A stretch of 64,000 bases of DNA from Leptolyngbyaceae cyanobacterium (GTDB lineage: Bacteria; Cyanobacteriota; Cyanobacteriia; Phormidesmidales; Phormidesmidaceae). Below are positions 3,901 to 55,403 of the stretch, in pieces. Within the stretch, counting starts at the first letter, position 1, and each line of letters opens with the position of its first letter. The stretch covers positions 2,432,001 to 2,496,000 of the forward strand of contig CBDHHL010000032.1 of assembly GCA_965263355.1 (NCBI GenBank). Reading direction: 5' to 3'. Both the position numbers and the translations under genes were made by a program. Below the pieces are notes generated by a model. It searched no databases. It saw only the letters and a program-made list of their open reading frames with translations, and was not told the origin of the DNA.

Positions 3901-4393
3901 ATACAGTCAGGAAACTGTTTTTGCTACAGCCTCTAATCATCAACCAATTCTAATGTTAGGTGTTTCAGTTGACATTAGCGATCGCAAAATTGCCGAAGCT
4001 GCACTGCAAGCTAGTGAAGAGCGCTGCGCCTTAGTATTTGAGGGCGTGGGTGCTGGGATCTGGGACTGGAATATCCTGACGGATGAAAACCTGGTTTCCT
4101 ATCGATTTAAGCAAATTTTGGGCTATGAAGACGATGAAATTGACAACCCCCTGGAGGTATGGGAAACGCGGCTACATCCTGATGATAAGGAGCGGGTATT
4201 AACGGCACAGAATAATCATCTGTATAATCGCACCCCCTACAAGCTAGAGTACCGTTTGCGCACCAAGACGGGAGCCTACATCTGGGTTTATGCCACCGGG
4301 CAAGCCATTTGGAATGAGGCCGGTAATCCTGTCCGGATGGCGGGCTCAATTACTGATATTAGCGATCGCAAAGCCGTCGAGACAGAACGCTAG
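995..4393 (+). CDS. CheB methylesterase-CheR methyltransferase-coiled coil-PAS protein, no kinase domain
   Basis: CheB motifs [13 protein letters not shown] and GTGSDG; CheR motifs [17 protein letters not shown] and [26 protein letters not shown] coiled coil; three PAS/PAC units; stops right after the last PAC ([12 protein letters not shown]). Confidence 0.92.
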
Positions 4394-34785: not shown

Positions 34786-34917
34786 GTTGACTAAACGTTC
34801 TGGAAGGTATGGAGTTGGGCTAGGGTTACTAACAAGTTTACTAAGCTAGTTGGTAAACGACATATCAACATGCTATGGGAATAAGAAATAAGGCAATATT
34901 GCCTAGCGTAAATTACC

Positions 34918-35949
34918 TTAGCGTTTCATATTCTGCTGTTTCAGTTCCTTTTTCATGTCTCGCTTGCTAGCCGCCGCCATTTCCGCATCCATAATGGTAC
35001 GTCCGGTTGCGGCTAGGTAAACGTCATCCAGACTGGGTTGCGACTGGGCAATGCCAAAGGTGGGTAACCCAGCCTCCTTAAGGGCTTTTTGCACCGTCAT
35101 CAGAGCGTCAGCTTCAGACTCTACCACTAGGTTTAGGGAATTTCCTTGGGCGCTATTGACAATCACCTCCTGCACCACAGGCAGTTCTTGCAGCATAGTG
35201 CTTGCTTGCTCTGCCTCATCCAGGGACGTAAACTCACGGATGCGTAAGGTAATACGCTCACCGCCCACGTTAGCTTTGAGTTCTGTTGGAGTACCAGCGC
35301 TGATCACCTTACCCTGGTCAATAATGGCCACCCGATTTGCCAGGGCATCCACTTCCTCTAAATAATGGCTAGTAATCAAAATAGTAGTACCCGCTGCCTG
35401 GAGCTGACGCAAAAATCGCCATACAGCTGAGCGACTTTCGATATCAAGGCCCACCGTCGGTTCATCCAGTACTAGCACATCGGGCTGATGCAGTAACCCT
35501 GCCGCTAGGTCCAAACGCTTTTTTAAACCACCGGAGTAGGTACCGGTTTTCTTATCCGCCCAGTCGGTGAGCTCCAATAGCTCGATCATCTGGTCAATGC
35601 GGGTTTTGGCTAGCATAGCCGGCAGATGGTAAATTGCAGCTTGTAGCTCCAGCAGCTCCCGTCCTGTCAGTACCTTATCCAGAGCAACTTCCTGGGCAAT
35701 ATACCCCAGTCGCTGTCGCACTTGCCGGGGCTCGGCTACTACCGATATCCCCATTATTTCCAAGTTGCCTGCATCAGGCAGCGTTAGGGTACACAAGCAG
35801 CGAATTGTTGTGGTTTTGCCTGCCCCATTAGGCCCCAGTAACCCAAAGATTTCTCCAGGCTCAATTTGTAATGAGACATCCTTTACTGCCTGGACATCGC
35901 CATAGCGCTTCTGAAGACCTTCAATGACAACTGCGTACTGCTCCGGCAT
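34918..35949 (-). CDS. ABC exporter ATP-binding protein, DrrA family
   Basis: Walker A GPNGAGKT, signature YSGGLKKRL, Walker B LVLDEPT and C-terminal PSLDDVYL; start placed at MPEQ (track start is 35988). Confidence 0.93.
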   Translation of the reverse strand: MPEQYAVVIEGLQKRYGDVQAVKDVSLQIEPGEIFGLLGPNGAGKTTTIRCLCTLTLPDAGNLEIMGISVVAEPRQVRQRLGYIAQEVALDKVLTGRELLELQAAIYHLPAMLAKTRIDQMIELLELTDWADKKTGTYSGGLKKRLDLAAGLLHQPDVLVLDEPTVGLDIESRSAVWRFLRQLQAAGTTILITSHYLEEVDALANRVAIIDQGKVISAGTPTELKANVGGERITLRIREFTSLDEAEQASTMLQELPVVQEVIVNSAQGNSLNLVVESEADALMTVQKALKEAGLPTFGIAQSQPSLDDVYLAATGRTIMDAEMAAASKRDMKKELKQQNMKR

Positions 35950-36337
35950 TCTGACTCTCCTGAAAACCCAGTTTAAGGGAACTTCCATCTACCTATATTA
36001 GACTCTATCGGAATTAAGACGGTGTAAAATCGACTCAACACCTTATCAAGTAAGCATGGGGATAGCCTTTTTGACAGTTCCCGAAATCCTTGTACATCAA
36101 GAGTTTTACCATTTTCAATTAGGTCTATCGTAGGCTTCAACCAGCGGCAGGCTTACAAGTTAATCAGTGCAAATTCAACCAAGTTTTCTTTGAGTTAGCG
36201 TTGGGCACTCTATGATCGCGTGCACTGTCTAGCTTTGTTAAATTTAAACCTATGCAAACCAGGGGTTGAAAGTTTTTCAGCAAGCAGTGAATTCTTCCCT
36301 TTCGTAGGTATCCAATTGGGATACATTACCTTTGAAT

Positions 36338-37486
36338 ATGCACAAGTTCTATGCCCTGTTCAATTCTTTGGCTGTGAAGGGACTACCCTTCCTGTCAGTT
36401 GCTGGAATTTTGCTATCAGGCTGTCAATTTTCTCAGATATCTCAGCCTGATGTTTCAGATGAACCTGTGCCCATTGACGCAAAGGGTATTGCGCTAGGAA
36501 ATACCTCTGGAATGCGCATTGCTTTTTCTATCTCCTTTATTAAGGATTCTTCTTTCCGGAAGACGATGGTAGAACACTTTGAAAAAACAGCCACTCAAGC
36601 ACAGCAGCAAGGTCTCGTTGAAGGCTTTACTATATTGGATGCGGACCAAGATATCCAAACACAAATTCGACAGATAGAGTCGCTGATTGAGGCAAATTAC
36701 GACGCCATTACAATTTTGCCAGGATCGGCAACGGAATTGAATGATGTGGTTAAAGCTGCCTGTGATGCTGGAATTATTGTTGTTGACTTCAATGCTGAGG
36801 TAACAGAATCCTGTTCCTACACTGTAGGTATGCTCTGGGAACAGTATGGGGCTGTGCAGGGAAGCTATCTTGGCAATCGCCTCGAGCAGGGCAATCTGTT
36901 GGAAGTACGAGGGGCTCCGGGGAATACCTCTGACACGGATATCAGTGCATCTATTCATGCGTCATTAGCGGATTTTCCTCAACTTAAGGTGATTGAATCG
37001 GTGCAGGGCAATTGGTTGCAAGATGTTGCTCAATCAGCTGTAGAAGACGTACTGCCTACATTGCCAGACATTGCTGCAGTGGTGACCCAAGGAGGGGATG
37101 GATATGGTACAGCCTTGGCCTTTGCCGCCAGCGATCGCACCATGCCCATTATCATTATGGGTAACCGCTACGAAGAATTAAAATGGTGGCAAGAACAGCG
37201 AGATACCAATGGCTATCAAACGGTTTCAGCGTCGGCCACACCGAGCATATCGTCGGTGGCTTTTTGGGTTGCCCAGCAAATTTTGGCGGGGAAAGAGGAT
37301 GTACCCAACTATCTTGGGATGCCTATTTTGATTATCGATGAGGAATCTCTGGATCGTTGGCTAGCGATTACATCCGAAGGGGAAGTGGCCACTCCCAATT
37401 ACACCCAAGAGTGGACAGTCAAGCTGATTGACGCCCAAAATCAGGATGCTCCAATCCCACTGCCTCCTCTGCCTGACGAGTTTTAA
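36338..37486 (+). CDS. Lipoprotein periplasmic solute-binding protein, sugar-binding class I type (SBP1)
   Basis: Lipobox [14 protein letters not shown]...[21 protein letters not shown] and [10 protein letters not shown]. Confidence 0.85.
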
Positions 37487-37571
37487 TCTTTGTTTCATAA
37501 ATCCGCTTCGTTTGTGTTCAGAAAAGTCTACAGGTCTAAAGAGTGAGTGTGTTTTAGCTAGGTATAGACGT

Positions 37572-40304
37572 ATGCCCAATTCACCAGACTTCCTCCGACC
37601 ATTACCATGGGCAAAGATCTGGCTCAGCTCTCTCAAAGGGCAGCTGTTAGTTGCATTGACAGGAGTAACCGTACTGTCGCTTACGGCTGTTGTCGGTATT
37701 GTGATCTGGGAAACGCGCAGAATTCTTACGAACCAAAAAGGGACGTCTTTTGAGGCCCTTGCCACGTTTGGCAGTCAACGGTTAGAGGGCGAACTGGCTC
37801 GGGAAATTGATCTCCTTAAAAATCTATCTGGAGAAAACTCCTTCTTTTATGAGGTGTTTAGTCGAAGTCAGGAGGATGCAAGTGTCTTTAGCGATCGCAT
37901 CATACAACAACGAGAAAAGGCGTGGAGTGAGGGCGATGAAGCCTTACAAGTTAAGATCCGAAGTCACCCGGCCTCTATCCATCTAGAGCGTTTTTCTCGT
38001 AAGTTTCCTGCTCACATCGAACTGATCTATACGGATCGCTTTGGTGCATTAGTCGCTTCTGGTGGCAATCGTCCTGAACACTATTCCTACGCAGGCCAAC
38101 CCTGGTGGCAGAACGCCTGGAATGGTGGAGAAGGTCGTATTTATATTCACCAGTTACCCATTTCTGCAGAACAATCTGAGACCTTAATCGAGCTGGCGGT
38201 ACCTGTTCGTCTTTTGGAAAATCAAACTGCTCAGGGAGTATTGCGATCGCGCTTTTTGCTTAGTGATCTCAATGTGTTTAAGGACTTTTCCACACTGTCT
38301 GAAATTGGCGGTGTTGTTCTCTTGGATAAAGAGGGCAACATTCTTCACAACTCCAATCGAACCCACATTGGCAAAAAAATTCGTGGTGAAACGCTTACTT
38401 CGTTGCGGCAAAATGCAACAGGGTGGCAACAATCCCGAGATGTAGCTGGCGACAAAACCATTAGCGGCTACGCCCAACTTAAGCCTTCGGCTAAACAAGC
38501 TTATCTTGCCCCCCTAGAATGGACGTTGATGGTTGAACAATCTATATACATTGCCCTAGCTACGGCGAATCGCCTGTCTTTGGTCGCTCTGCTAGGCGGT
38601 ATAGGAACGTTAATGGTTGCTTTGTGGATGAGTCATCACACTGCTCAACGATTTACTCGACCTATTCAATCGCTTACCCAAACTGCCTCATCTATGGCTG
38701 CAGGAGAGTTAGCATGTCAAGCTCCAATGGTGGGTGCTAGAGAATTTCAAACCTTGGCTAAGGCATTCAACAGCATGACAGCCCAGCTACAACAGTCTAT
38801 CGCCACCCTGGAGCAACGGGTACAAGAGCGTACAAAGGAATTGACAGTCGCAAAGGAGCAGGCCGATGCCGCTAACCAGGCCAAAAGCGATTTCTTGGCC
38901 AACGTAAGCCATGAGTTCCGCACGCCCCTCAACGGCATCCTCGGCTATGCTCAAATTCTAGAGCGTTCCGAATCATTGGCTCCTAGGACAAGGGACGGCA
39001 TCGCTATTATCTATCAGTGTGGTGCCCATTTACTCACATTGATAAATGATATTTTAGACATTGCCAAAATTGAAGCTCGAAAGTTGGAGCTGGAGCCAAA
39101 ACCACTGTACCTGCCATTTTTACTTCAGAGTGTGGTGGAAATGTTTCAACTGAAGGCAAACGATAAAGGCATTGAGTTTATCTATCGGCCTAGTTCTCAA
39201 TTACCAGAGAGTATCGCAGCCGATGAAAAGCGACTCCGACAAGTGTTGATCAATCTACTGGGCAATGCCATTAAGTTTACAGACCAGGGAACAGTAAAAT
39301 TTCAAGTTGATGTGATGGCGCTATCTGAGAAAAGTGCTTTATTTCTGTTTCAAATCACTGATACTGGCTTAGGCATTGCCAAAAACGATCTTGCCAAGCT
39401 ATTTGAAGCATTTGAACAGGTAGGCGATCAGAAAAAACGATCAGAAGGAACCGGTCTGGGCTTAACCATCAGTCAGCGTATTGTAAAGTTGATGGGAGGT
39501 ACGATCCAGGTCCAGAGTGAATTAGGCAAAGGGAGCAAGTTTTACTTTACGGTTGAGCTGCCCCTACTTGTATCAAATTGGTCTGAGCAACCGAGAAATC
39601 TAGTGGCGAAAGATCTCATTGTTGGCTATGAAGGTCAATGCTACAAAATTCTAGTAGTTGATGATTGTTGGGAGAATCGAGCTGTTATCCAAAATCTTTT
39701 GGTTCCCCTAGGCTTTGAGATTATAGAAGCAGAAAATGGCCAAGAAGGGCTAGAACGAAGTCTTTTTAACCAGCCTGACCTTATAATTACCGATTTAGCT
39801 ATGCCGGTGATGGACGGGGTTAAGTTTTTGCAGCATATTCGCGAGTCAGACGAGTTAAAACACACTCGTGTAATTGTGTCGTCTGCTTCGGTAGCACAGG
39901 AGGATCAACGCATGGCTTTGGATAGCGGGGGAGATGACTTTTTAGCAAAACCTGTTGACGCTCATGCCCTATTCACCTCATTGGCAAATCAGCTTCAGCT
40001 AACCTGGATTTATGCAGATGAAGAAAAGCCCGTAGTAGTGTCTGAGCAGCTTCCTACCAAAATAATCTTGCCACCACGTCAAGTTCTAGAAGCACTGCTT
40101 GAGTCAGCCCAGGAGGCCAATATAAAAGCTCTCCGAGAACAGCTCACGAAGTTGACAGAATCTGATCAAGCATATGCGCCCTTTGCTGAACCTATTTTGC
40201 AACTCAGCCGACAATTTGCGGCTGAAGAAATAGAGGCATTACTCCAAAATCATCTGGCGGGGGAATTGCCCCATGCCAAAAAGAAATTAGAGGTTAGTGA
40301 TTGA
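37572..40304 (+). CDS. Hybrid sensor kinase HK1 (TM-Cache-like-TM-HAMP-HisKA-HATPase-REC)
   Basis: Two TM helices, WWQNAWN Cache-type motif, [31 protein letters not shown] and REC ITDLAMP; start placed at ATG 37572. Confidence 0.92.
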
Positions 40305-40538
40305 GGCTCTTACTTGATACTTTTTGTAGTCTTGAGCTGAAAGCTAAGACTTAGAATCAGCCATGGTTCTCTACCAGACTTTAAAGTCTGATTCATAGCA
40401 GGATTCTGTGTAGCCTTATCATTCTCCGGGTATTCTATTTTTATGTAAATGCACTTTATGTAAATACATTAAGGGCCAGCTGTCAGTTGCCAAAAGGTTC
40501 TGAGACTATACGCTTCTAAACTGGTTAAAAATGAACCC

Positions 40539-43352
40539 ATGCAAATAGTTATCTCGTTTTTTAGCCAGCTCTTAACACGTGTTAATTATCGGAAATCCTT
40601 AAGCATTAGCACTCTATTAAACATGGCAGTGCGTTTGATGCTAGTTGTTTTAGCAATTTCTGGTATCAGCTATCTGCATTTGATGCACCAGTTATCCCAG
40701 GACACTGAGGAACGGCTGTCCAAATACATTACTGAACGTAGCAAGCGCGAAGAAGAAATTTTTGTCCTAGCCGAAGATAATCATGCCTTGTTGCGTCAGG
40801 ACTTCCTCAAGCAATTCAATACAGATACGTCCATTGATTGGTGCGATCGCTTTCAGGATTACTTTGATACCTGGTCCGACGGGACAGTACGTAATGTTCC
40901 TGAGGGAACCTCATCCCAAGCCTTTGATACAGAGGCCCATCCCACTGCATTTTTAGAACGTAATCTAGACTTAACCACCGATCTATACAAGCGGATGGTG
41001 TTGTCCTACGAACTTGTAGACAGGTACGGATCTGGCTGGCGCAATCGTTTTTTAGACACTTACATTAGTTTGCCGGAAGGAGCTAATACGGTTCTTTGGC
41101 CAGGTGCAGCCTGGGGAATTGAAGCCGCTGTTGATCTCCACATAGCCGATGAAGAATGGGCCTACTTAGGCGAGCATATTCATAATCCTGAACGTAAAAC
41201 CCTGTGGACTGGAGTTTACGCTGATCCAGTCATTCAAGATTGGATGGTATCTGCCGAAACCCCCATTGATGACGCCAATGGTCGCCACCTGGCGACCATC
41301 GGTCACGATATTATTCTAACTAATCTGTTTGAACGCACTATTAATGACCACTTAGAGGGAGCCTATAATCTGATTATTCGGAAGGATGGTCAATTAGTAG
41401 CTCACCCCAATTGGATGGAACAAATTCGGGCAGCAGGGGGGAGACTTGATGTTCAACAATCTGGAGATGACCACTTAGAAAGATTGTTTAAATTTGCCCA
41501 GCAAAGTCAGACTGTTGGACCAGTTTCTTATAACCGTCAAGATCGAGAGTATTTAGCAATTGCCCAACTGCGTGGACCAGGCTGGTATCTAATCACCGTT
41601 TATCCTGAAACTCTTCTCCAGGAGGAAGCTTTTGAATTAGCCAGGTTTGTATTGTTATTAGGTGTGTTCTCTCTTATTTTAGAGATAATTCTTTTGTACT
41701 TTGTGCTGCGGCAGAAAATAGCTACACCTCTAGAAAACCTGAGGGATGCCACCCAAAAATTATCCACAGGTGAATTTGATGTGCAACTGGATACCGAAAG
41801 GCAGGATGAATTGGGCCAATTAGCATTAGCCTTTACCCAGATGACCCAACAATTGCAAACTGCCTTTAGTACGTTAGAAAAACGGGTTGAAGAACGCACA
41901 GCGGAGTTAAAACAGGCAATCCTCAGAGCTGATCAGGCTAACCAGGCCAAGAGTGAGTTTTTGGCAAATATGAGTCACGAGTTGCGCACACCACTCAATG
42001 GAATTCTGGGCTATACCCAAATTTTAGATCGAAATCAAATACTGGATCGCAAAACACAACAAGGACTTGACGTTATTCATCAGTGTGGCGTTCACCTGCT
42101 AACATTGATTAATGATATTTTAGATCTTGCTAAAATCGAAGCCCGAAAATTAGAGCTTGCACCGACGCCCCTCCATCTACCTTCTCTGATACAGAGCGTT
42201 GTGGAAATGTGCAAGCTCAAGGCAGAGCAAAAGGGGATCGAGTTTATCTATCGGCCCAGTGCCCAAGTACCAGAGGGTGTATCCGCTGACGAGAAGCGAC
42301 TGCGACAGGTATTGATTAATCTCCTGGGGAATGCCATCAAATTTACTGACCAGGGTTCGGTCACGCTACAGGTGGATGTACTGTCGCTGTCGACAACAAA
42401 CGCTTCGATTTTATTTCAAATTATCGATACAGGGGTGGGTATTGCTGAAGAGAATCTCGCTAAGTTATTTGAAGCTTTTGAGCAAGTTGGTGATCAAAAA
42501 AAACAATCAGAAGGTACTGGTCTTGGCCTATCGATTAGCCAACGGATTGTGACGTTAATGGGAGGAACTATTGAAGTCAAGAGTGAATTAGGTAAGGGCA
42601 GTGAGTTTTTCTTTGTTGTTGATTTGCTACTGGCACCGGATTGGTCCGAACAACAGGTTACATTAGGTAATAGAGATCGCATCATTGATTATGAAGGCAA
42701 GCGTCGCCGCATCTTGGTAGTTGACGATCGCTGGGAGAATCGAGCCGTTATTCAAGGTTTGTTGGCTCCTCTCAGATTTGAAATTATCGAAGCAGAAAAT
42801 GGACGGAAAGGTTTAGAGCAATTACAGATAAACTCACCTGATCTGGTAATTACTGATCTGGCCATGCCAGTCATGGACGGTTTTAAATTTTTACAGCATA
42901 TTCGCAGTACAGATGACTTTAAATCCATTCGTGTAATTGTCTCTTCTGCTTCAGTGGGACAGGAGGACCAGCGTATGGCATTGGACCATGGAGGAGATGA
43001 TTTTCTAGCCAAACCTGTCAATGCCAGTGAGTTATTTGCTTCGCTGGCAAATCAACTTCAGCTAACATGGCTCTATAAAACTGACGATAGTGCAGAAACA
43101 AGTTCTAAGAAATTGTCTATTGAAGTATCGATACCACCCTACTCAGTTCTGGAAGAACTTCTAAAATCTGCCCAGGAAGCTGATATGAAAACTCTCAGGG
43201 CACAGCTTACAGAGTTAATCGCATCTGATCAGGCTTATATTCCTTTTACAGAACCTATTTTGCAACTCAGCCGACAATTTGAGGCCGAGGAAATAGAGGC
43301 ATTACTCCAAAATTTTCTAGCAAGGGAATTGCCCCATGCCCAAATGAAATAA
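40539..43352 (+). CDS. Hybrid sensor kinase HK2 (TM-dCache-like-TM-HAMP-HisKA-HATPase-REC)
   Basis: WTGVYADP...WMVSAETP and LVAHP Cache motifs, HAMP DELGQLA, SHELRTPLNGI and REC. Confidence 0.93.
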   Translation: MQIVISFFSQLLTRVNYRKSLSISTLLNMAVRLMLVVLAISGISYLHLMHQLSQDTEERLSKYITERSKREEEIFVLAEDNHALLRQDFLKQFNTDTSIDWCDRFQDYFDTWSDGTVRNVPEGTSSQAFDTEAHPTAFLERNLDLTTDLYKRMVLSYELVDRYGSGWRNRFLDTYISLPEGANTVLWPGAAWGIEAAVDLHIADEEWAYLGEHIHNPERKTLWTGVYADPVIQDWMVSAETPIDDANGRHLATIGHDIILTNLFERTINDHLEGAYNLIIRKDGQLVAHPNWMEQIRAAGGRLDVQQSGDDHLERLFKFAQQSQTVGPVSYNRQDREYLAIAQLRGPGWYLITVYPETLLQEEAFELARFVLLLGVFSLILEIILLYFVLRQKIATPLENLRDATQKLSTGEFDVQLDTERQDELGQLALAFTQMTQQLQTAFSTLEKRVEERTAELKQAILRADQANQAKSEFLANMSHELRTPLNGILGYTQILDRNQILDRKTQQGLDVIHQCGVHLLTLINDILDLAKIEARKLELAPTPLHLPSLIQSVVEMCKLKAEQKGIEFIYRPSAQVPEGVSADEKRLRQVLINLLGNAIKFTDQGSVTLQVDVLSLSTTNASILFQIIDTGVGIAEENLAKLFEAFEQVGDQKKQSEGTGLGLSISQRIVTLMGGTIEVKSELGKGSEFFFVVDLLLAPDWSEQQVTLGNRDRIIDYEGKRRRILVVDDRWENRAVIQGLLAPLRFEIIEAENGRKGLEQLQINSPDLVITDLAMPVMDGFKFLQHIRSTDDFKSIRVIVSSASVGQEDQRMALDHGGDDFLAKPVNASELFASLANQLQLTWLYKTDDSAETSSKKLSIEVSIPPYSVLEELLKSAQEADMKTLRAQLTELIASDQAYIPFTEPILQLSRQFEAEEIEALLQNFLARELPHAQMK

Positions 43353-43442
43353 GAGGATAGTGATTGATGACTATCTATTGATAAAATCTGTATCGTTTTG
43401 GTCTCTACTGCACATCGCTTATATATCAAGACTGGGCATTCT

Positions 43443-44999
43443 ATGCTCGATATATTGAGAATTAGCAATATGAGTTTAACCCCCTTTGGATATCGTTTGA
43501 AGTTTTGGGCAGTCATCCTCGGAGTTGGCCTGATTAGTGTGAATTGTGGTAATCCCAATAGCTCAACAGTGGATGAAAGTGAGGGCCTATCAACAGAGCC
43601 ACGATTTGATGGTGTGACCCTGACCGTTGCAGGCTTGAAATATCCCATCGGCAATGCCTATGAGGCCCATGCTAAAAGCTTTGAAACGATGACAGGGGCT
43701 AACGTCGTCTTCGAAACAGTGGATGAGTTTGGGGATGTCTATGACAGTATCGCTGTAGATTACACTTCAGGTAATAATCGCTACGACGTTATTGTTTACA
43801 CGCCACTGTGGTTACCTGACCTGGTTAAAGCAAACTATCTGGCCGATTTGACAGCACGGGTTAACGCTGACAAAGTGCTTGAGTGGGATGACATTGTGCC
43901 TTTCTTCCAGAAGTATGGAGGAACCTACGATAATAAAATTTACGGTATTCCTGCCGATGGCGATTACTACATGCTCTACTATCGCAGTGATTTGTTAGAG
44001 CAGAACAGTTTGGAACCACCTAGAACTTGGGATGAGTATCTGGCAATCGCTGAACAATTCCATGGCCAGGATCTCAATGGAGACGATACTCCTGATTATG
44101 GCTCTTGTCTTCCTAAGCAACCTAATCATGTGGGCTGGTGGGCATTCTGGTCTATTGCCGGGTCATATTTACAAAGTCATGGAACCAGCCAGGGTGGGTT
44201 CTTTGATGTTGAAACCATGCAGCCATTGACCAATAATGCTGCTTTTGCTGAGGCACTCGATGTGTATAAGACTACTGGGAAATATGGCCCGCCCGATGAA
44301 TTGACCCATTCTATGAGTGATGCAAGAGAGCGTTTTATATCCGGACGTTGTGCCCTGACCATGGACCATGGAAATATGGGAGCACTGACCATTGCTCCCC
44401 AGTCTCAAGTTGAAGATAAGGTAGGAACAGCTATTTTGCCTGGAGCAACAAAGGTACTCGATCGCAAAGCTGGAGAGCTAGTTGCTTGTGACAAATTTAC
44501 CTGTCCCTACAGTATCAATGGTGTCAACCATGCCCCCTATGCCGCTCTTATTGGTTGGACAGCTGGGGTTAATGCTGCGTCTGATCCGAAAGTACAGGAT
44601 GCAGCCTATGCATTTATTTCTTATGTAAGTCAGCCTGCCCAGGCTAATGTTGATGTCACAGTGGGCGAGACGGGCTTCAACCCTTACCGTATTTCCCAAC
44701 TTACAGATGCAGATACTTGGGTGCAGGCAGGCATGAGCCCTACTGCCGCTAACAAATATCTCGGTGGTATCGGGGCAAGTCTGAACAACCCTAATATTAT
44801 GCTGGATCTTACTATTCCTAATAACAACGGCTATCAGCAAGAGATTTTGGGGACAGCCTTATCCTCCTTTCTGGCCGGTGAAATCACTCGTGACCAGGCA
44901 ATGGAAACTATCACAACAGGTTGGGAAGCCCTGACAGATGAAATGGGGCGTACCCAACAAAAGGCAGTGTATCGTACTGGACTAGGTCTAGATTCTTAA
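43443..44999 (+). CDS. Lipoprotein extracellular solute-binding protein, class II type (SBP2)
   Basis: Lipobox-like ISVNC; YGIPADGD, YYRSDLL, PPRTWDEY and DLNGDDTPDYGSC; start uncertain (43398, 43443 or 43470). Confidence 0.87.
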   Translation: MLDILRISNMSLTPFGYRLKFWAVILGVGLISVNCGNPNSSTVDESEGLSTEPRFDGVTLTVAGLKYPIGNAYEAHAKSFETMTGANVVFETVDEFGDVYDSIAVDYTSGNNRYDVIVYTPLWLPDLVKANYLADLTARVNADKVLEWDDIVPFFQKYGGTYDNKIYGIPADGDYYMLYYRSDLLEQNSLEPPRTWDEYLAIAEQFHGQDLNGDDTPDYGSCLPKQPNHVGWWAFWSIAGSYLQSHGTSQGGFFDVETMQPLTNNAAFAEALDVYKTTGKYGPPDELTHSMSDARERFISGRCALTMDHGNMGALTIAPQSQVEDKVGTAILPGATKVLDRKAGELVACDKFTCPYSINGVNHAPYAALIGWTAGVNAASDPKVQDAAYAFISYVSQPAQANVDVTVGETGFNPYRISQLTDADTWVQAGMSPTAANKYLGGIGASLNNPNIMLDLTIPNNNGYQQEILGTALSSFLAGEITRDQAMETITTGWEALTDEMGRTQQKAVYRTGLGLDS

Positions 45000-45109
45000 C
45001 TGAAGAAAGAAAACTGTTGTGTAAATAGGGTCAAGATAAATTCATTCGTTTAGCAGCGTAACACCATCAAACTCGTCAAGCCATCAAGACGTTATTCCAG
45101 ACCATTGCT

Positions 45110-47773: not shown

Positions 47774-50012
47774 AAAAGATCAAGAGAAGGCAGACTATAA
47801 AAATTTTGCAGATGCGCAAGATATCAGACACTTTCCTCAAGGACACTTAGAACTCATTCAAGTAGGGGGGGCAACCGTAGGTAGAGCTGTCTTTGAACCT
47901 GGATGGAACTGGGAAACATCTATACAACCGTTAGCACAAACATCAAGTTGTCTAGCTCCACACTTTCAGTACCATGTCAGGGGAGTTTTGCATATTGTGA
48001 TGGATGATGGCACAGAATTTGACTGTAAACCCGGTGATGTCTCTTACCTGCCCACGGGGCATGGAGGCTGGACAGTAGGGGATGAACCTGCTGAAGTCAT
48101 CGATTTTCAAGGCATGCTCGACTATGCTCAACAAAAACAAAAACAAGTAGAAAAAAAGCTTAATCGGTTGATCGAGGAATCCCCTTTACCCATATTGGTG
48201 ATTAATAACGATGGTCAAGTAATAAATTCGCTATCCAACCAAAGTTTTCAAAATTTAATGGGTTTTGCTCATGCCAAGATTGTTTACAACCAAAGATTTG
48301 AGGAGGTATTGGGGTTTAAGTCAGGGGAATTAAAAACTATAACTGATTGGTGGAATAGAGCATTCCCCGATGAGGACTATCGTCTAAAGGTTATTCATGA
48401 TTGGAATGCAAAATTTGAACAATCAGTTCAATCAGATGGTTCTGTTTCTCCCTCAGAAGTAGAGGTTCAATGTAAAAATAATGAACGCAGAATCTTTCAG
48501 GTACATTTATCGAGAGTAGATTCTCAGAGTATGGCTATTTTTGTCGATTTAACAGAACAAATTCGACAGAAAACTTTGTTAGAGGAAGCCAAGAAATCGG
48601 CTGACAAAGCCAATCAAGCCAAAAGTAAATTTCTTGCGAACATGAGCCACGAACTCCGTACTCCCCTTAATGGAATTCTTGGTTATGCCCAAATTTTGAG
48701 TCGGTCTTCAGAATTACCAGAAAAAGAGCAGAAGGGGGTAGACATTATTCATCAATGTGGATCGCACCTCCTTACATTGATTAACGATATTTTAGATCTG
48801 TCTAAAATCGAGGCTCAAAAACTAGAGCTAGTCCCCACCGCACTTCATTTGCCATCTTTACTACTAAGCGTAGTGGAAATGTGTAAAATTAAGGCCGATC
48901 AGAAAGGTATTGATTTTATTTATAAACCTAGTTCTCGTTTGCCAGAGGGGATTAAGGCAGATGAAAGACACTTGCGTCAGGTTCTCATTAATTTGCTAGG
49001 GAATGCTATTAAATTTACTGATTCTGGTCATGTGAGCTTATGGGTAGATGTCTTAAAACAATCAGATACTCAAGCGTCTTTGCTATTTCAAGTCGTTGAT
49101 ACTGGGGTAGGCATTGCAGAAGAGAATCTTATCAAACTCTTTGAAGCTTTTGAGCAAGTTGGCGAGCAGAAAAAACAGTCTGAAGGAACGGGGCTAGGAT
49201 TAGCTATCAGTCAGCGCATTGTCCAACTGATGGGTGGAACGATCAACGTTAAGAGCCAACTGGAGAAGGGAAGCGAATTTTTCTTCAGTATTGACTTGCC
49301 AATAGTTGATGATTGGGAGCAACAGCTCAGAGGAGATGGAAATAATCATATCATTGGCTATGAAGGTAAGCGTTATCAGATCTTGGTAGTAGATGATCGC
49401 TGGGAGAATCGGGCTGTCATCCAAAATCTGTTAGAACCCTTGGGCTTTAAAGTCATTGAGGCAGAGAATGGACAAGAAGGACTAAAAAAACTTCGAGCTA
49501 ATCAACCAGATCTGGTGATTACTGATTTAGCTATGCCTGTAGTGGATGGCTTTGAGTTTTTGCAGTACATTCGCAACTCAGATGATTTAAAGCGCAGTCG
49601 TGTGATTGTGTCTTCTGCCTCGGTGGCTCAAGAAGATCAACGCATGGCTCTAGAAAGCGGGGGCGATGACTTCCTCGCAAAACCAGTGAATGCTGACGCT
49701 TTATTCACTTTACTTGCAAATAATCTTCAATTAACATGGATTTACAAGGTTGCAGACGATATTAGAACTGGTTCTAAGGAACTACCCGCTCAGGTGGTGG
49801 TGCCACCGCGTCAAGTTCTGGAAGCACTTCTAAAATCTGCCCAAGAAGCTAATGTAAAAGACATTAGGGTACAACTTGCAGAGTTAACCGAGCTTGATCA
49901 AATATATATGCCTTTTGCTGAACCGATTTTGCAACTTAGTCGACAGTTTGAGATAGAGGAAATAGAGGCACTATTAGAGAGGCACCTGGATGAAGGATTG
50001 CTCCATAGCTGA
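47766..50012 (+). CDS. Soluble hybrid kinase HK4 (cupin-PAS-HisKA-HATPase-REC)
   Basis: Cupin VGRAVFEPGWNW...CLAPH...DDGTEF...PGDV...PTGH...W; PAS DWWNRAFPDEDYR; SHELRTPLNGI and REC; no TM; overlaps the HK3 stop (ATGCCTGA). Confidence 0.9.
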   Translation: MPEKDQEKADYKNFADAQDIRHFPQGHLELIQVGGATVGRAVFEPGWNWETSIQPLAQTSSCLAPHFQYHVRGVLHIVMDDGTEFDCKPGDVSYLPTGHGGWTVGDEPAEVIDFQGMLDYAQQKQKQVEKKLNRLIEESPLPILVINNDGQVINSLSNQSFQNLMGFAHAKIVYNQRFEEVLGFKSGELKTITDWWNRAFPDEDYRLKVIHDWNAKFEQSVQSDGSVSPSEVEVQCKNNERRIFQVHLSRVDSQSMAIFVDLTEQIRQKTLLEEAKKSADKANQAKSKFLANMSHELRTPLNGILGYAQILSRSSELPEKEQKGVDIIHQCGSHLLTLINDILDLSKIEAQKLELVPTALHLPSLLLSVVEMCKIKADQKGIDFIYKPSSRLPEGIKADERHLRQVLINLLGNAIKFTDSGHVSLWVDVLKQSDTQASLLFQVVDTGVGIAEENLIKLFEAFEQVGEQKKQSEGTGLGLAISQRIVQLMGGTINVKSQLEKGSEFFFSIDLPIVDDWEQQLRGDGNNHIIGYEGKRYQILVVDDRWENRAVIQNLLEPLGFKVIEAENGQEGLKKLRANQPDLVITDLAMPVVDGFEFLQYIRNSDDLKRSRVIVSSASVAQEDQRMALESGGDDFLAKPVNADALFTLLANNLQLTWIYKVADDIRTGSKELPAQVVVPPRQVLEALLKSAQEANVKDIRVQLAELTELDQIYMPFAEPILQLSRQFEIEEIEALLERHLDEGLLHS

Positions 50013-50059
50013 CAGCAATAAGAGGTTAAGAGTATGTTCGTTTACCGTAAGTTTACTGA

Positions 50060-51508
50060 ATGGCAATGAAGCTTATAAAGAGAAACACTACTTTAATAGG
50101 CCTAATACTCTTGGAATTAGCGACTAATCTTTCAGGCTGTTCCCTGCTTCAACGTCAAACTCAGATCTCTGAAATACAAGTTGCAGCAGGTCAAACTGCA
50201 CCTGATACCGAAGATTCGTTGGTTATTTGGTGGGAACAGGGATATGGAGTTGACGCTAACGAAGCCATTATTCAACTAGTTGAACAATGGGAGAAAATCT
50301 CTGGTATAGAAGTCACCCTCAAACTGAAACCTGCTCCCCTTGATGAGCAACTCGCCTTAGCGATTCGTCAGGGAGATACGCCTGACATTGCGTTTAACGG
50401 TCCAATTTCTCTTATTATTCCGCAGTTAGCAGGTACTGGGCAGCTTACAGATGTTTCCGACGTTATTAATCCGATTCACAATACTTTTAATCCCAATGCG
50501 TTGGCAGGAGCAACCTATCTAAATCAGGTTACAGGTGAGCAGAGCTTTTATGCTATCCCCACTGGGATGGTTACTTATAATATCCACTACTGGCGGCCCT
50601 ATCTCGAGCAGGTGGGACTGAGCAATAAGGATATTCCGCATGACTGGCAAGGGTTTTGGGCCTTTTGGAAAACCCTCCGCGATGATCTTCACAAAGCTGG
50701 TGAAACGAACATCAATAGTTTTTGTCTTACATTGTCTGGTGATTCTCACGATGGCAAGGAAACCCTGGCCATATTTCTACATGGCAACAATGTGGAAATA
50801 TTTGATGCCCAAGGTCAGCTTGTACTCGATCATCCCCAAAATCGTCAGGGGTTAATTAATACATTTGTTCAATTATCCTCGCTATATAAAGATGGGTATA
50901 TTCTTCCAGGTGCGATTGATTGGCAAAATCCTGACGACAATTTTCAGTTTCTAGATCATCAATGTTTGCTGGTATTAAACGGATCGCTTTCAATTCCCTC
51001 CACCCAAAAACTTCCAGATACCATTTACAACCAGGCAGAAAATAACCGCTACACAAATGAAATCGTCACCTTACCCAAATGGCCCAATACCACCAATGGT
51101 AGTCCATTCAAAAATTTTATCGGCACCCAGGTAATTGTGGTTCCGGCTAGGGCAAATAATCCAGAAGCAGCTAAGCAGTTTTTGAGCTACCTCTTACAGC
51201 TAGAAAACTTTAGGCAATGGAATGAACAACTCAAAGGACGCTTTATTCCCTCGTTATCAGCACTTTTAAATACCCCGTTTTGGCAAGATCCTAATGACCC
51301 GCATTTTGCTGCAATTTTGGATATGCAAACAGAAACAACACAACCATATCCTCAAGCTCTCAACCCTGCTTATGCCGACATTGCTGAGCAAGAAGTTCTA
51401 ACTGGAGCATTGGAGCGCATTATTCAAGAGAATATCGCACCGGAAGTTGTTGTAGATGAGGCGATCGATCAGATTAAAGCATTGGTCAATCAATATGGGG
51501 AAGACTAA
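50060..51508 (+). CDS. Lipoprotein extracellular solute-binding protein, class II type (SBP3)
   Basis: Lipobox LSGC; LVIWWEQG, TPDI, IHYW, IPHDWQGFW and AKQFLSYLL; ends 3 bp before HK5. Confidence 0.87.
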   Translation: MAMKLIKRNTTLIGLILLELATNLSGCSLLQRQTQISEIQVAAGQTAPDTEDSLVIWWEQGYGVDANEAIIQLVEQWEKISGIEVTLKLKPAPLDEQLALAIRQGDTPDIAFNGPISLIIPQLAGTGQLTDVSDVINPIHNTFNPNALAGATYLNQVTGEQSFYAIPTGMVTYNIHYWRPYLEQVGLSNKDIPHDWQGFWAFWKTLRDDLHKAGETNINSFCLTLSGDSHDGKETLAIFLHGNNVEIFDAQGQLVLDHPQNRQGLINTFVQLSSLYKDGYILPGAIDWQNPDDNFQFLDHQCLLVLNGSLSIPSTQKLPDTIYNQAENNRYTNEIVTLPKWPNTTNGSPFKNFIGTQVIVVPARANNPEAAKQFLSYLLQLENFRQWNEQLKGRFIPSLSALLNTPFWQDPNDPHFAAILDMQTETTQPYPQALNPAYADIAEQEVLTGALERIIQENIAPEVVVDEAIDQIKALVNQYGED

Positions 51509-51511
51509 ACT

Positions 51512-54115
51512 ATGGTGTCGTCATTACGTAAAAGCCTGCTGGCTAAAATCACCTTATCGTTTTCCCTTCTATCAGCAATAACGGTTGGCATTGTTGCCTT
51601 TGCAGGCTATCTACAAGCCCGAGGATCGCTGACAAAGGAAGTCGTCGATCGATTGACTGCCACAACCGCACTAAAGAGTACTCAGCTGGATGAATGGATT
51701 GATAACCAGCTACAGGATACCCTGTTAATTCGCTCTCAGTCAACTATTCGCGATGCCGTTGCAAGCCTCTTAGTCACAGACACCGCAACACCTGACTATG
51801 AACAAGCCTATGGCGAACTAACTCAGAATATTAATGATTGGATAGCATTTAAGCCTAATATGCAGAATATCTGGGTAACCACTAATGGTGGTTATGTCGT
51901 TTTTGATGCCCAGAATACCGACAATATTGGACGATATCGGCCTAACGGAGATCCCACAACATTTTTTACTGAAAAAATTGGTAGTAAAATTATTCCCAAC
52001 TTCTATATTTCTCCCCAAACCAGTCGCTCAGCCATTACGTTTGCAACACCAATCGTTGATCAAAATCAGCTGCAGATGGGGGCCATTGTCATCGATCTTC
52101 AACTAACAGATATTGATATGCTGATTCGAACCAATACTGGTTTGGGCAAAACTGCAGAAACCTATTTGATTGGTCGTAGCTCAGAGGGCGCTTTGTTTAT
52201 CTCAGGCTCCTATCAAGAGCAAGATAATACTCAGGAATATATCAGTAGCTTAGGTATTGAACAAGCCATTGAAGGTAAAGATGGCTTTGGCCTCTATAGA
52301 AATTATGCCAATGTTCCAGTTGTGGGGGTTTACCGCTGGTTGCCCAACAATGAGCTGGCGATAATATCAGAAATTTCTCAGACAGAAGCCTTTGCTCCAG
52401 CGCGAAAACTGGCCCGTAATATTATCTTGATTGGTCTGCTATCTGTCAGTACCTCGCTCATTATTGTATATTTACTCTCTCGGCAAATTGTGCAACCAAT
52501 TCTGGCAATTAGTGAATCTGCTAAAGCTCTGGCTGCTGGCGATTTAAATCAGACCACTCCAGTGATAACCGAGGATGAAGTTGGGATTCTGGCTCAAACG
52601 TTTAACCAAATGGCTACTCAGCTGCAGGGATTGGTGAACAATTTGGAAAAGCTTGTTCAGGAGCGTACTGTGGAACTAACTCAGGCAAAGAAAGCTGCCG
52701 ATCAGGCCAACCAAGCCAAGAGCGATTTCTTGGCGAATATGAGCCATGAGCTGCGCACTCCTCTCAACGGTATTTTAGGCTATGCCCAAATTTTAGGTTG
52801 TTCCCAGGCTTTGCCCAGCAGCAGAGAACGAGACTGGGTCAATATTATTCACCAATGTGGATCGCATTTGCTAACGCTGATTAATGATATCTTAGACCTG
52901 GCTAAGATTGAAGCTCGTAAGTTAGATCTGGTACCCATTAGCGTCCATTTACCTTCACTCCTCCAAAGTGTAGTAGAAATGTGCAAAGTCAAGGCAGTAC
53001 AGAAGGGTATCGAGTTTATCTATCAACCCAGTTCTCGGTTGCCAGAGAGTGTGGAAGTTGATGAAAAACGACTACGACAAGTACTGATCAATTTGTTGGG
53101 TAATGCCATAAAATTCACCAACCAGGGGTTGGTTATACTCCAGGTCGATGTACTGTCACTGTCTGAAACACACGCTTCAATCTTGTTTCAGATCATTGAT
53201 ACCGGAGTAGGCATTGCCGAAGAAAATCTCACTAAGCTGTTTGAAGCATTTGAACAAGTCGGTGATCAGAAAACACAATCGGAGGGGACTGGACTTGGCT
53301 TGGCTATTAGTCAGCAGATTGTGCAACTGATGGGAGGAACGATTCAAGTCAAAAGTGAGTTGGGCAAGGGTAGTGAGTTTTACTTTACGATTGAGTTGCC
53401 CCTAGTATTAAATTGGGCTGAACAGCAAGGGAATTCGGAAAGTAGCAGGCTAATCGTTGGGTATGAAGGAGAACCTTACCAAATCCTGGTGGTGGATGAT
53501 CGCTGGGAGAATCGGGCTGTTATTCAAAATCTGCTGGAACCCCTTGGATTTGAAATAATTGAAGCTGAGAATGGACAAGAAGGATTAGCACAACTTCAAG
53601 CCAATCAACCTGATCTGGTGATTACCGATTTGGTCATGCCTGTAATGAATGGATTTGAATTTTTGCAGCATATTCGCAATTCAAACGAGTTCAAACATAC
53701 CCGTGTAATTGTATCGTCTGCTTCAGTATCACAATTGGATCAGCGTATGGCTTTAGAAAACGGAGGAGATGACTTTCTTGCAAAACCCGTTGACGCTAGT
53801 GCCTTATTTAACTCACTGGCAAACCAGTTACAGTTAACGTGGCAGTATGAGGTTGAGGAAAATGCGGTAATGACTGCTAAGGTAGCGTCTATTGAAATGG
53901 TTTTACCTACATCTCAAATCCTGGAAGCACTATTAAAATCAGCCCAGGAAGCTGATATCAAAAACCTCAGAATCCAGTTAGTAGAATTGACCGAGGCTGA
54001 TCCAGCATATCTACCCTTTGCTGAACCTATTTTGCAACTGAGCCGACAGTTTGAGGCTGAGGAAATAGAGGCACTATTACAGAAGTACTTGGATGAGGGA
54101 TTACGCCATGCCTGA
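51512..54115 (+). CDS. Hybrid sensor kinase HK5 (TM-Cache-like-TM-HAMP-HisKA-HATPase-REC)
   Basis: GLGKTAETYLI, YRNYANVPVVGVYRW and EAFAP Cache motifs; HAMP DEVGILA; SHELRTPLNGI and REC. Confidence 0.93.
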   Translation: MVSSLRKSLLAKITLSFSLLSAITVGIVAFAGYLQARGSLTKEVVDRLTATTALKSTQLDEWIDNQLQDTLLIRSQSTIRDAVASLLVTDTATPDYEQAYGELTQNINDWIAFKPNMQNIWVTTNGGYVVFDAQNTDNIGRYRPNGDPTTFFTEKIGSKIIPNFYISPQTSRSAITFATPIVDQNQLQMGAIVIDLQLTDIDMLIRTNTGLGKTAETYLIGRSSEGALFISGSYQEQDNTQEYISSLGIEQAIEGKDGFGLYRNYANVPVVGVYRWLPNNELAIISEISQTEAFAPARKLARNIILIGLLSVSTSLIIVYLLSRQIVQPILAISESAKALAAGDLNQTTPVITEDEVGILAQTFNQMATQLQGLVNNLEKLVQERTVELTQAKKAADQANQAKSDFLANMSHELRTPLNGILGYAQILGCSQALPSSRERDWVNIIHQCGSHLLTLINDILDLAKIEARKLDLVPISVHLPSLLQSVVEMCKVKAVQKGIEFIYQPSSRLPESVEVDEKRLRQVLINLLGNAIKFTNQGLVILQVDVLSLSETHASILFQIIDTGVGIAEENLTKLFEAFEQVGDQKTQSEGTGLGLAISQQIVQLMGGTIQVKSELGKGSEFYFTIELPLVLNWAEQQGNSESSRLIVGYEGEPYQILVVDDRWENRAVIQNLLEPLGFEIIEAENGQEGLAQLQANQPDLVITDLVMPVMNGFEFLQHIRNSNEFKHTRVIVSSASVSQLDQRMALENGGDDFLAKPVDASALFNSLANQLQLTWQYEVEENAVMTAKVASIEMVLPTSQILEALLKSAQEADIKNLRIQLVELTEADPAYLPFAEPILQLSRQFEAEEIEALLQKYLDEGLRHA

Positions 54116-55403
54116 AAAAGCTAAAATTCTGGCGGTCGATGATATTGCGGCTAACTTAGAAATCATTGTAGAAACGCTTTCCTCAGCAGGCTATAAGATT
54201 GCCACTGCTACAAGTGGAAAACGTGCGCTCAATCGATTAGAGAGCTTCCGTCCTGACTTGATTTTGTTAGATATTCAAATGCCAGAGATGAATGGCTTTG
54301 AAGTCTGCCAGCAGCTGAAAGTAAATCCAAAAACAGCTGAGATTCCAGTGATTTTTGTGACAGCGTTCTCTGATATGGAGAGTGTGTCTAAGGGGTTTTC
54401 TCTGGGCGCAGTTGACTACATTACTAAACCTTTTCGGGAGGCAGAACTTTTAGCTAGGGTCAATACCCATATACAGCTTAGACAGATTAATCAGGAGCTG
54501 GAGCAACGGGTGCAAGAACGAACCCATGAGCTAGAAAATATCTTAAGTCAATTAAGAAAGTCTCAGTTACAGCTTATTCAACAAGAGAAGATGTCAGCCC
54601 TCGGTAATTTAGTGGCGGGGGTAGCGCATGAAATCAACAATCCTATCAGCTGTGTTAGTGGCAATGTGCTTGAGCTAAAGAATAATTTAAGGGATATATT
54701 TTCTTATATTAACCTATGTCAAAAACAAACGTCTTCAAAAGAACAAGAAGACTGTGCCAATGAAATTGATTTGGAATTTCTCTTAGAGGATATTCCTAAG
54801 ATGATGATATCTGTGGAGAATGCCTGCGATCGCATCATGAACATCAGCAGGAGTCTGAGAACATTTTCACGAATTGATCAAGAAAACAAGACTCTTGCCG
54901 ATCTTCACGAAGGGTTAGATAGCACTCTACTGATTTTAAAACACCGATTAAAAGGCGACGATAACCATCCCCAGATTGACGTCATTAAAGACTATGGAGA
55001 TTTACCAGATGTTTATTGTTTTTCTGGTAAGCTCAACCAGGTATTTATGAATCTAATCACTAACGCTATTGATGCGCTAGAGGACAGTAATAAGGAAAAG
55101 ACTGACTCAGAAATACAAGACCGTCCTAGTCAGATTAAGCTCAAAACAACTTGCTTTGAGGATCACGTCAATATCCACATTAAAGACAATGGTATTGGTA
55201 TGCCTAAAGATATTCAAAAGCGGATTTTTGACCATCTTTACACCACCAAAGAGATCGGCAAAGGTACTGGGTTAGGATTGGCCATTGTCAAACAAATTAT
55301 TGTTGAGGTTCATGGCGGTAGCATTCAAGTTAAATCTGAAGTAGGCCAGGGTACAGAATTTATAGTGACTTTACCCATTGGTGACGCTACCCAAGCGCAA
55401 TGA
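54108..55403 (+). CDS. REC-HisKA-HATPase hybrid (receiver-first, NtrB-like kinase)
   Basis: KILAVDD, ILLDIQMP and DYITKPF; EKMSALGNLVAGVAHEINNP; NQVFMNLITNAIDA; GTGLGL; start at the ATG overlapping the HK5 stop. Confidence 0.93.
   Translation: MPEKAKILAVDDIAANLEIIVETLSSAGYKIATATSGKRALNRLESFRPDLILLDIQMPEMNGFEVCQQLKVNPKTAEIPVIFVTAFSDMESVSKGFSLGAVDYITKPFREAELLARVNTHIQLRQINQELEQRVQERTHELENILSQLRKSQLQLIQQEKMSALGNLVAGVAHEINNPISCVSGNVLELKNNLRDIFSYINLCQKQTSSKEQEDCANEIDLEFLLEDIPKMMISVENACDRIMNISRSLRTFSRIDQENKTLADLHEGLDSTLLILKHRLKGDDNHPQIDVIKDYGDLPDVYCFSGKLNQVFMNLITNAIDALEDSNKEKTDSEIQDRPSQIKLKTTCFEDHVNIHIKDNGIGMPKDIQKRIFDHLYTTKEIGKGTGLGLAIVKQIIVEVHGGSIQVKSEVGQGTEFIVTLPIGDATQAQ

Follow-up and report, generated by a model that had tools for sequence, protein, structure and literature searches.

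A cyanobacterial array of solute-binding proteins and five hybrid kinases with a predicted common Rec-kinase acceptor

Two kinds of bacterial signalling systems are closest to the locus analysed here, namely sensor kinases that depend on a solute-binding protein (SBP) and kinases that are controlled by a REC domain. The sources cited below describe both kinds as single pairs from proteobacteria, firmicutes, and spirochaetes. The locus is an array of nine genes in a Leptolyngbyaceae cyanobacterium (NCBI GenBank assembly GCA_965263355.1) that encodes three SBPs (SBP1 to SBP3), five histidine kinases (HK1 to HK5), and a terminal kinase that begins with a REC domain and is termed the Rec-kinase. 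The stretch of DNA that was analysed (contig CBDHHL010000032.1, positions 2,432,001 to 2,496,000 of the forward strand) has 64,000 nucleotides and is called the window, and the array occupies positions 36338-55403 of the window.

The first kind includes TorT/TorS, HptA/HptS, XylFII/LytS, AioX/AioS, BctC/BctE, CBP/ChiS, and GltB/GtrS, which resemble the array in that the SBP gene lies beside the gene of a kinase whose sensor is Cache-like or of the four-helix type, and in that they signal without an adjacent transporter (PMC8050422). The second kind is represented by LvrA and LvrB of Leptospira. His218 of LvrA is reported to phosphorylate Asp524 of the same protein and, in vitro, Asp56 of LvrB, without a histidine phosphotransfer (Hpt) domain (PMC5863495). 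Phosphorylation of the Rec domain of LvrB is described as leading to formation of a coiled coil, freeing of the CA domain, which is catalytic and binds ATP, and transfer to the regulator LvrC (PMC13269768).

The array is probably a multi-input two-component cascade in which the SBPs would act as co-receptors and the five kinases would pass phosphate directly to Asp60 of the one Rec-kinase, as judged from the encoded domains and from the Lvr analogy. The initial annotation of this stretch had recognised the gene array and had read the SBPs as receptors, and both points are retained here; it had missed the core shared by the kinases, their conserved C-terminal domain, and the Lvr precedent. Its view that the inputs converge also gained comparative support, although it left unaddressed the route by which hybrid kinases that bear an Asp of their own would reach another receiver without an Hpt.

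Binding proteins and their gene neighbourhoods

Open reading frames (ORFs) and Pfam domain scans give nine genes in the order SBP1-HK1-HK2-SBP2-HK3-HK4-SBP3-HK5-Rec-kinase, all on the + strand (Table 1). This is the order and orientation first annotated, and the domain searches on all nine proteins confirmed the architecture that had been proposed. The domain, transmembrane (TM), and leader scans also bear out that one class I and two class II lipoprotein SBPs are each encoded directly 5' of a membrane kinase. Within 36338-55403, Pfam scans identified neither a permease or ABC ATPase nor an Hpt or DNA-binding domain, as had been noted from the sequence. The intergenic distances in the block range from -8 to 318 nucleotides, and the 318-nucleotide gap is the one between HK1 and HK2.

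Lipoprotein leaders were called using the lipobox rule. All three SBPs and every orthologue inspected exhibit a hydrophobic leader that terminates in Cys. The SBP2 leader (ISVNC) has an unusual Asn at position -1, and the Cys that follows this leader is conserved in 9/9 family members. Similarities to sugar SBPs in NCBIfam, including those of SBP1, were weak and sub-threshold.

The homologues of the SBPs, and those of the C-terminal tail described below, were surveyed in a sample of 150 genomes from the same cyanobacterial order. SBP2 homologues (49-87% identical) were identified at eight loci in 7/150 genomes, and a kinase of the same family is the next gene in 8/8. A Rec-kinase is the next gene after the kinase in 5/6 evaluable loci of the SBP2 type. 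At the sixth of these loci (L029), the Rec-kinase lies just upstream of the SBP, and a squalene-hopene cyclase is encoded after the kinase. The SBP1 homologue was identified in 1/150 genomes, where L052 has the SBP1-HK1-Rec-kinase trio (63%, 58%, and 56% identical, respectively). SBP3 has no close orthologue among the 150 genomes, and its homologues at 28-37% identity occur in 45/150. The neighbourhood of SBP3-like genes was assessed at the best 20 loci (33-37% identical), for which 26 of the 79 listed neighbouring ORFs were scanned for domains. The next gene at these loci encodes a dCache kinase (10 loci), a PG_binding or long-N-terminus dCache protein (five loci), VanY (three loci), or an unassigned product (one locus), and one locus is at a contig end. 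A dCache protein is therefore next in 15/20 of these best loci and a permease in 0/20. In at least four of these genomes, the same kinase bears the tail and has a Rec-kinase gene after it, as judged by matching coordinates.

SBP3-family relatives lie beside the VanY D-Ala-D-Ala carboxypeptidase at L032, L036, and L043, and beside PG_binding_1-dCache proteins at L037, L042, and L049. The VanY and PG_binding_1 neighbours hint that the distant SBP3 family may report cell-wall fragments. Mem_trans, an auxin-efflux-type carrier, is encoded upstream of SBP3-family genes at L037, L042, L045, and L049.

All three window pairs exhibit the LuxP/LuxQ-type gene arrangement, in which the SBP adjoins a kinase and has no cognate permease or ATPase beside it. 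The SBP homologues are next to kinases or dCache proteins in the same manner (8/8, 1/1, and 15/20 loci for SBP2, SBP1, and the best SBP3-like genes, respectively), and permeases are beside none of them at these 29 loci. SBPs of the DctP and NMT1 types also precede kinases with the same core in other arrays, and five SBP families in total are placed before kinases of one core family. These gene neighbourhoods give comparative support to the predicted role of the SBPs as kinase co-receptors, which had been put forward in the initial annotation.

The same SBPs could serve uptake through a transporter encoded elsewhere, in which case the kinases would sense the ligand directly by their Cache domains and the adjacency would reflect co-regulation. 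Direct binding of small ligands is common in Cache domains, and SBPs with dual roles in transport and signalling are described (PMC8050422); at L001 and in four pairs of genome G002, the kinases also have no adjacent SBP. We nevertheless consider this explanation very improbable, given the absence of permeases at the 29 homologue loci, the like placement of five SBP families before kinases of one core family, and the location of kinase-stimulating SBPs with signalling genes (PMC8050422). The permease and ATPase that would adjoin the SBP in an SBP-dependent ABC or TRAP importer are absent from 36338-55403. The ABC-2 pair 5' of the block is an exporter-type pair, conserved at 92-94% identity in a relative whose locus lacks an SBP.

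Table 1 Features of the array, with positions in the window
Feature	Position	Strand	Description
SBP1	36338..37486	+	Class I (Peripla_BP_4) lipoprotein, Pfam E 5.7e-45; leader end LLSGC; predicted HK1 co-receptor
HK1	37572..40304	+	TM-dCache-TM-HAMP-HisKA-HATPase-REC membrane hybrid kinase; ORF open from 37428, likely start 37572
HK1 tail	39981..40301	+	Linker and four-helix bundle
HK2	40623..43352	+	TM-dCache-TM-HAMP-HisKA-HATPase-REC; ORF open from 40539; no SBP gene directly before
HK2 tail	43047..43349	+
SBP2	43470..44999	+	Class II (SBP_bac_1/8) lipoprotein; leader end ISVNC; predicted HK3 co-receptor
HK3	45110..47773	+	TM-periplasmic single-Cache (PDC) domain-TM-HAMP-PAS-HisKA-HATPase-REC
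HK3 tail	47474..47770	+	Modelled copy
HK4	47766..50012	+	Soluble, no TM segment; weak cupin and PAS-HisKA-HATPase-REC
HK4 tail	49713..50009	+
SBP3	50060..51508	+	Class II (SBP_bac_8/1) lipoprotein; leader end NLSGC; predicted HK5 co-receptor
HK5	51512..54115	+	TM-dCache-TM-HAMP-kinase-REC; starts 3 nucleotides after SBP3
HK5 tail	53816..54112	+
Rec-kinase	54108..55403	+	REC, coiled-coil linker, dimerisation and histidine phosphotransfer (DHp) domain, CA; predicted common acceptor

Shared kinase core, Rec-kinase and C-terminal tail

The cores of HK1-HK5, from the H-box to the C-terminus, are 69-79% identical, and their sensor halves are unrelated (21-29% identical). The DHp helices of the five kinases are nearly the same, and their internal RECs all keep the catalytic residues. 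HK1, for which the database form has 910 amino acids, HK2, and HK5 match dCache_1 at 20-32 bits, below the Pfam gathering score of 45 (E = 4e-4 to 9e-8). The periplasmic domain of HK3 (165 residues) has no Pfam match; its AlphaFold2 (AF2) model has a single Cache/PDC fold at a pLDDT of 76, and Foldseek matched the model to the WalK, CitA, and DctB sensors among 22 matches at E<=0.001. These four kinases thus have a TM pair that encloses an extracytoplasmic Cache-like sensor, as assigned by the sub-gathering dCache_1 matches and, for HK3, by the single-Cache model. The N-terminus of HK4 (47766-48290, +) matches Cupin_2 below the cut-off (E 0.0036). A cupin-like region there would be an unusual cytoplasmic sensor of small molecules or metals for a hybrid kinase.

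The Rec-kinase retains D60, T90, K112, H179 (in AHEINNP), and the N, G1, F, and G2 boxes. Its best relative in the PDB is LvrB (E 2e-32), with an alignment over residues 4-185 and 236-427 that covers the Rec domain, linker, H-box, and CA domain. It is soluble and has the LvrB arrangement of REC, coiled-coil helix, DHp, and CA with Asp and His intact, and a hybrid kinase is encoded adjacent to it on the upstream side. The Asp and His are invariant in 11/11 Rec-kinase orthologues. The spacing between them is 119 in the window Rec-kinase, which equals the 105 of LvrB plus two heptads (14); 8/11 orthologues are in heptad register with LvrB and 3/11 are offset by three. The NCBIfam LvrB model NF047466 scored 147.9 bits on the Rec-kinase against a cut-off of 500, and the LvrA model scored about 174-195 against a cut-off of 1200. 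Judged from its sequence, the Rec-kinase is an LvrB-type, Rec-controlled kinase that belongs to the same architecture class without being an orthologue. Since the terminal gene is LvrB-type, the LvrA-LvrB pair of Leptospira is the mechanistic precedent for transfer without an Hpt.

The likeness of the Rec-kinase to LvrB and the data on LvrA-LvrB are the reasons for proposing direct branched transfer. Each lipoprotein SBP, when loaded with ligand, would serve the next gene's product, a Cache-type membrane kinase, as its co-receptor, with binding between SBP and sensor being predicted. The His of the DHp domain would then transfer phosphate both to the kinase's own REC, which may be a sink or a timer, and to Asp60 of the Rec-kinase, as in LvrA-LvrB. 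Phosphorylation of the Rec domain would zip the coiled-coil linker and free the CA domain so that H179 is autophosphorylated, as in LvrB. From the Rec-kinase, the output would pass to a response regulator whose gene lies elsewhere.

Each of the five kinases runs about 100 residues past its REC, and this tail is common to all five copies. It consists of a linker and a four-helix domain of roughly 70 residues, and it has no Pfam match at E<=10. The AF2 model of the HK3 tail exhibits a disordered linker that is followed by helices at 33-44, 48-61, 63-77, and 81-98, where the pLDDT is about 85. A word-based search retrieved the tail in just 16 proteins, and an exhaustive profile search retrieved it in 794 representative clusters at E<=0.001. 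Of the 150 best profile matches, 139 have a tail whose end lies no more than 10 residues from the C-terminus. The 32 tail proteins scanned with Pfam have the tail after HisKA-HATPase-REC behind MASE1, dCache, CHASE3, GAF/PAS, and Pkinase-AAA_16 sensors, with three of the 32 architectures being HisKA-HATPase-tail without a REC. Within the order, the tail is present in 106/150 genomes, with one to eight copies each.

The shape of the tail is possibly comparable to that of Hpt domains. In a wide structure search, the Hpt domain of RcsD/YojN ranked first (Z 7.9), and CheA P1 (6.1) and HptB (5.7) were found among generic bundles, all in the noise range of helical bundles. Foldseek returned nothing for the tail at E<=0.001, with an Hpt domain at rank 2 within the same kind of noise. 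In the ESM Atlas, the tail is nearest to unnamed cyanobacterial clusters (0.92); among named clusters, Hpt comes closest, at a value (0.76) that lies below the counting level. The best match among PDB sequences has an E of 0.045. The probability from hhalign for the tail against natural Hpt profiles of relatives is 0.1%, with either 20 or 143 tail sequences, and no His is conserved in alignments of 16, 20, or 143 sequences (top column 26%). Because of this profile probability and the lack of a column with conserved His, the tail is treated as an unnamed four-helix domain that is possibly Hpt-like in shape and is not a phosphotransfer domain, as far as sequences and models indicate. Histidine-less pseudo-Hpt proteins exist, such as AHP6 of plants. 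In the literature library searched, no paper was found on the tail domain or on a cyanobacterial SBP-kinase-Rec-kinase array, which is a weak negative as the library is not searchable by sequence.

Three candidate functions of the tail were rejected. An Hpt domain is contradicted by the lack of a PF01627 match at E<=10, the hhalign probability of 0.1%, and the lack of an invariant His. DNA binding in the style of ChiS is ruled out by the acidic character of the tail (pI 4.4-5.0). The penultimate His of the five window tails is not a candidate phospho-site, being N, Y, R, or D in relatives.

The gene next to the tail was examined at the best 30 tail loci of the order sample, six of which overlap loci examined before. 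A REC-first gene lies within about 200 nucleotides at 25 of these loci, with an alignment to nearly the full Rec-kinase at 23 of the 25, and one more locus (L076, the array of genome G104) has a REC-first gene two genes on. For the control, the 30 best matches to the core only were taken from five relatives, and 26 of them could be judged. A REC-first gene is next to the tail-bearing hybrid kinases in 17/17, with an alignment that extends into the kinase part in 16/17, and a Rec-kinase is next to the tail-less hybrid kinases in 0/9. The Fisher probability, calculated by hand, is about 3e-6, with independence overstated by the relatedness of the genomes. The kinases of L025 and L026, which underwent loss of their REC, still have both the tail and the Rec-kinase. 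The tail marks kinases that are partnered with Rec-kinases, and it almost always predicts the next gene in relatives. The near-identical cores, the adjacency of the tail (17/17 versus 0/9), and the LvrB relative support, by comparison and analogy, the initial proposal that the kinases feed a single terminal Rec-kinase. From these sequence comparisons, we tentatively suggest that the acidic four-helix tail may be what links sensor kinases with the Rec-kinase, in the simplest case by serving as a docking domain.

Hybrid kinases normally need an Hpt. A canonical phosphorelay would thus run from His to Asp within each hybrid kinase and then through an Hpt encoded elsewhere to the Rec-kinase or another regulator, with the role of the tail being unrelated. 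The five internal RECs are catalytically intact by their residues, and each of five relatives encodes 8-17 Hpt domains, some in small open frames of 110-196 amino acids. This route appears unlikely to us, as neither the block nor the related loci that were examined yielded an Hpt, the REC-less variants retain the tail and the Rec-kinase, and the strict adjacency of tail and Rec-kinase would be left unexplained. LvrA-LvrB is also reported to function without an Hpt (PMC5863495).

The near-identical DHp helices would permit heterodimers. The kinases could accordingly modulate each other through these helices or through their tails, in the style of RetS-GacS, so that just one of them talks to the Rec-kinase. 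Multikinase networks of this kind are known, and the usual ratio in relatives is one kinase per Rec-kinase. The tail-bearing kinases of relatives each have their own Rec-kinase, however, which argues that each is signal-competent, and HK5 alone would signal although the cores of HK1-4 are equally conserved. We therefore regard such modulation as quite improbable.

Direct transfer from all five kinases to the Rec-kinase remains the preferred reading, and several points weigh against it. The usual ratio of one kinase per Rec-kinase, as in the separate pairs of genome G082, makes convergence at 5:1 an extrapolation. Four of the best 30 tail loci have no Rec-kinase nearby, and co-occurrence is the sole basis for the role given to the tail. 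The counts of adjacency and neighbourhood were drawn from related genomes that are not phylogenetically independent. The Hpt domains of the five relatives count here as well, and L001 and the four pairs in G002 indicate that kinases of this family can do without an SBP.

The site in relatives and its surroundings

The array site was compared with the same site in relatives, where the flanking genes are 90-95% identical. L001 has a MEKHLA protein, one dCache kinase, and a Rec-kinase (75% identical) at this site, without an SBP. The MEKHLA-domain protein (L001:3010-3489, 159 amino acids, E 1e-57) is in the place that is taken elsewhere by an SBP. L002 has SBP2 (86%) and HK3 (78%) before the contig ends, and L003 has a single kinase and a Rec-kinase. 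The metagenome contig L004 has an HK5-like kinase together with a DctP-type SBP and a 4HB/CHASE3 kinase, and G104 combines a dCache kinase and an NMT1-type SBP with a second kinase and a single Rec-kinase. Two genes of G104, those of the dCache kinase and of the Rec-kinase, are each split in two ORFs (L095:5159-8288, 11825-13133), and at L030:12957-15911 the Rec-kinase is in two pieces around a 448-amino-acid ORF without a Pfam match. The gene content of the relatives thus indicates that the number of sensor cassettes before the one Rec-kinase varies at this site. The number of kinases per Rec-kinase in relatives is one or two, and five is exceptional.

The cores and sensors of the kinases exhibit different relationships. 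The HK1 core is 69-74% identical to the cores of its array neighbours versus 61% to the core of L052, which carries the orthologue of its sensor (59% identical). The HK3 sensor is 83% identical to that of L002, and the HK3 core is 76% identical to L002 versus 77-78% to HK4 and HK5. In the maximum-likelihood tree, the five window cores and the cores of the three closest relatives form one clade (support 90/95), and the cores of L052, L024, L025, and L026, which have orthologous sensors, are located outside the window clade. The HK5 core and the single kinase of L001 are sisters (99/98). It follows from the tree and the identity patterns that the sensors are older than the cores now carrying them. 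This mismatch in age points to homogenisation of the cores or to exchange of cassettes, as read from the sequences, and the array probably grew by duplication and swapping of sensor-plus-SBP cassettes onto one lineage-specific core. A broader reading, which we regard as conceivable but speculative, is that the tail is a new kinase-to-kinase coupling domain, histidine-less and Hpt-sized, that the core is a universal plug for cyanobacterial sensors, and that the locus is a hot spot of cassette swapping. If so, close strains would differ in sensing, with one, two, or five inputs at the same site.

Contigs from four public runs span the entire locus, show no differences, and are interrupted only at the repeated kinase cores. 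Run X4 has identical pieces at low depth, and a variant array was not seen there. As the whole locus is covered without differences, the array is not an assembly artefact. The scan for promoters and terminators gave counts at or below the shuffled expectation and is uninformative on operon structure.

The block is bounded by the divergent ABC-2 exporter pair (33904-35988, -) and by ctaB/ctaA, with ctaA, ctaB, and cox genes flanking it. The ValRS encoded in the window has a CAAD insertion, and marine Leptolyngbya-like genomes are the closest named relatives. Just past the cox genes, a 198-amino-acid ORF with an rve integrase core (62388-62984, -) is probably part of an insertion sequence. Two divergent giant CheB-CheR-PAS fusions, one with a C-terminal histidine kinase, are encoded at 995-4393 (+) and 4444-8718 (-). 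A single REC gene (207-629, -) and a REC-PAS-TPR gene (9338-10552, -) lie near them and make up a second signalling cluster of unusual architecture. The ORF at 11750-17143 (+) encodes a 1797-amino-acid protein that combines a TPS secretion domain and TPR repeats with a CHAT protease domain at the C-terminus; the region 14001-16000 has the top GC content of the window (0.525) with a strong negative GC skew. An adenylate kinase-thioredoxin fusion is encoded in a single ORF at 23272-24069 (+).

Comparison with known systems

The LuxQ, LuxN, and CqsS hybrid kinases of Vibrio have different inputs and converge on LuxU-LuxO. This convergence of several hybrid kinases on one acceptor is similar to that predicted for the array. 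However, in Vibrio the Hpt protein LuxU is the acceptor for scattered kinases whose cores are unrelated, whereas the array has a Rec-kinase as the predicted acceptor, five tandem kinases with a shared core, and three SBPs of two classes. At the level of the single pair, LuxP/LuxQ of Vibrio is also alike in combining a transporter-less Peripla_BP_4 SBP with a dCache-like hybrid kinase (PMC8050422).

The other SBP-kinase systems, from TorT/TorS to GltB/GtrS, are single pairs of proteobacteria or firmicutes, and no cyanobacterial case was seen among those listed in PMC8050422. In contrast to the array, they have neither the tail nor an output through a Rec-kinase. Behind its REC, ChiS likewise carries an additional domain, which binds DNA, whereas the window tail is acidic. 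Hpt domains (PF01627) may resemble the tail, which is modelled as a small four-helix bundle and comes after a REC.

The LvrA-LvrB-LvrC system of pathogenic Leptospira is alike in that a hybrid kinase is adjacent to a kinase with REC, coiled coil, DHp, and CA, and in that the pair has neither an Hpt nor a DNA-binding domain. LvrB also shares the AHEINNP H-box with the window Rec-kinase. Unlike the array, the Lvr system is cytoplasmic and has a single input kinase and no SBP, and LvrA has a second kinase module after its REC in place of the tail (PMC5863495).

The locus would show that transporter-less SBPs of five or more families serve cyanobacteria as co-receptors of kinases and that several inputs can enter one LvrB-type kinase. 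The tail offers a concrete starting point for asking how a second kinase is reached by hybrid kinases that have no Hpt, which the Lvr work did not settle. The loci with one, two, or five kinases per Rec-kinase, together with the REC-less variants, form a natural series for the evolution of sensing repertoires. Compared with the systems described so far in the cited sources, the locus combines SBP-dependent kinases with a cascade from hybrid kinase to Rec-kinase and adds a widespread unnamed domain.

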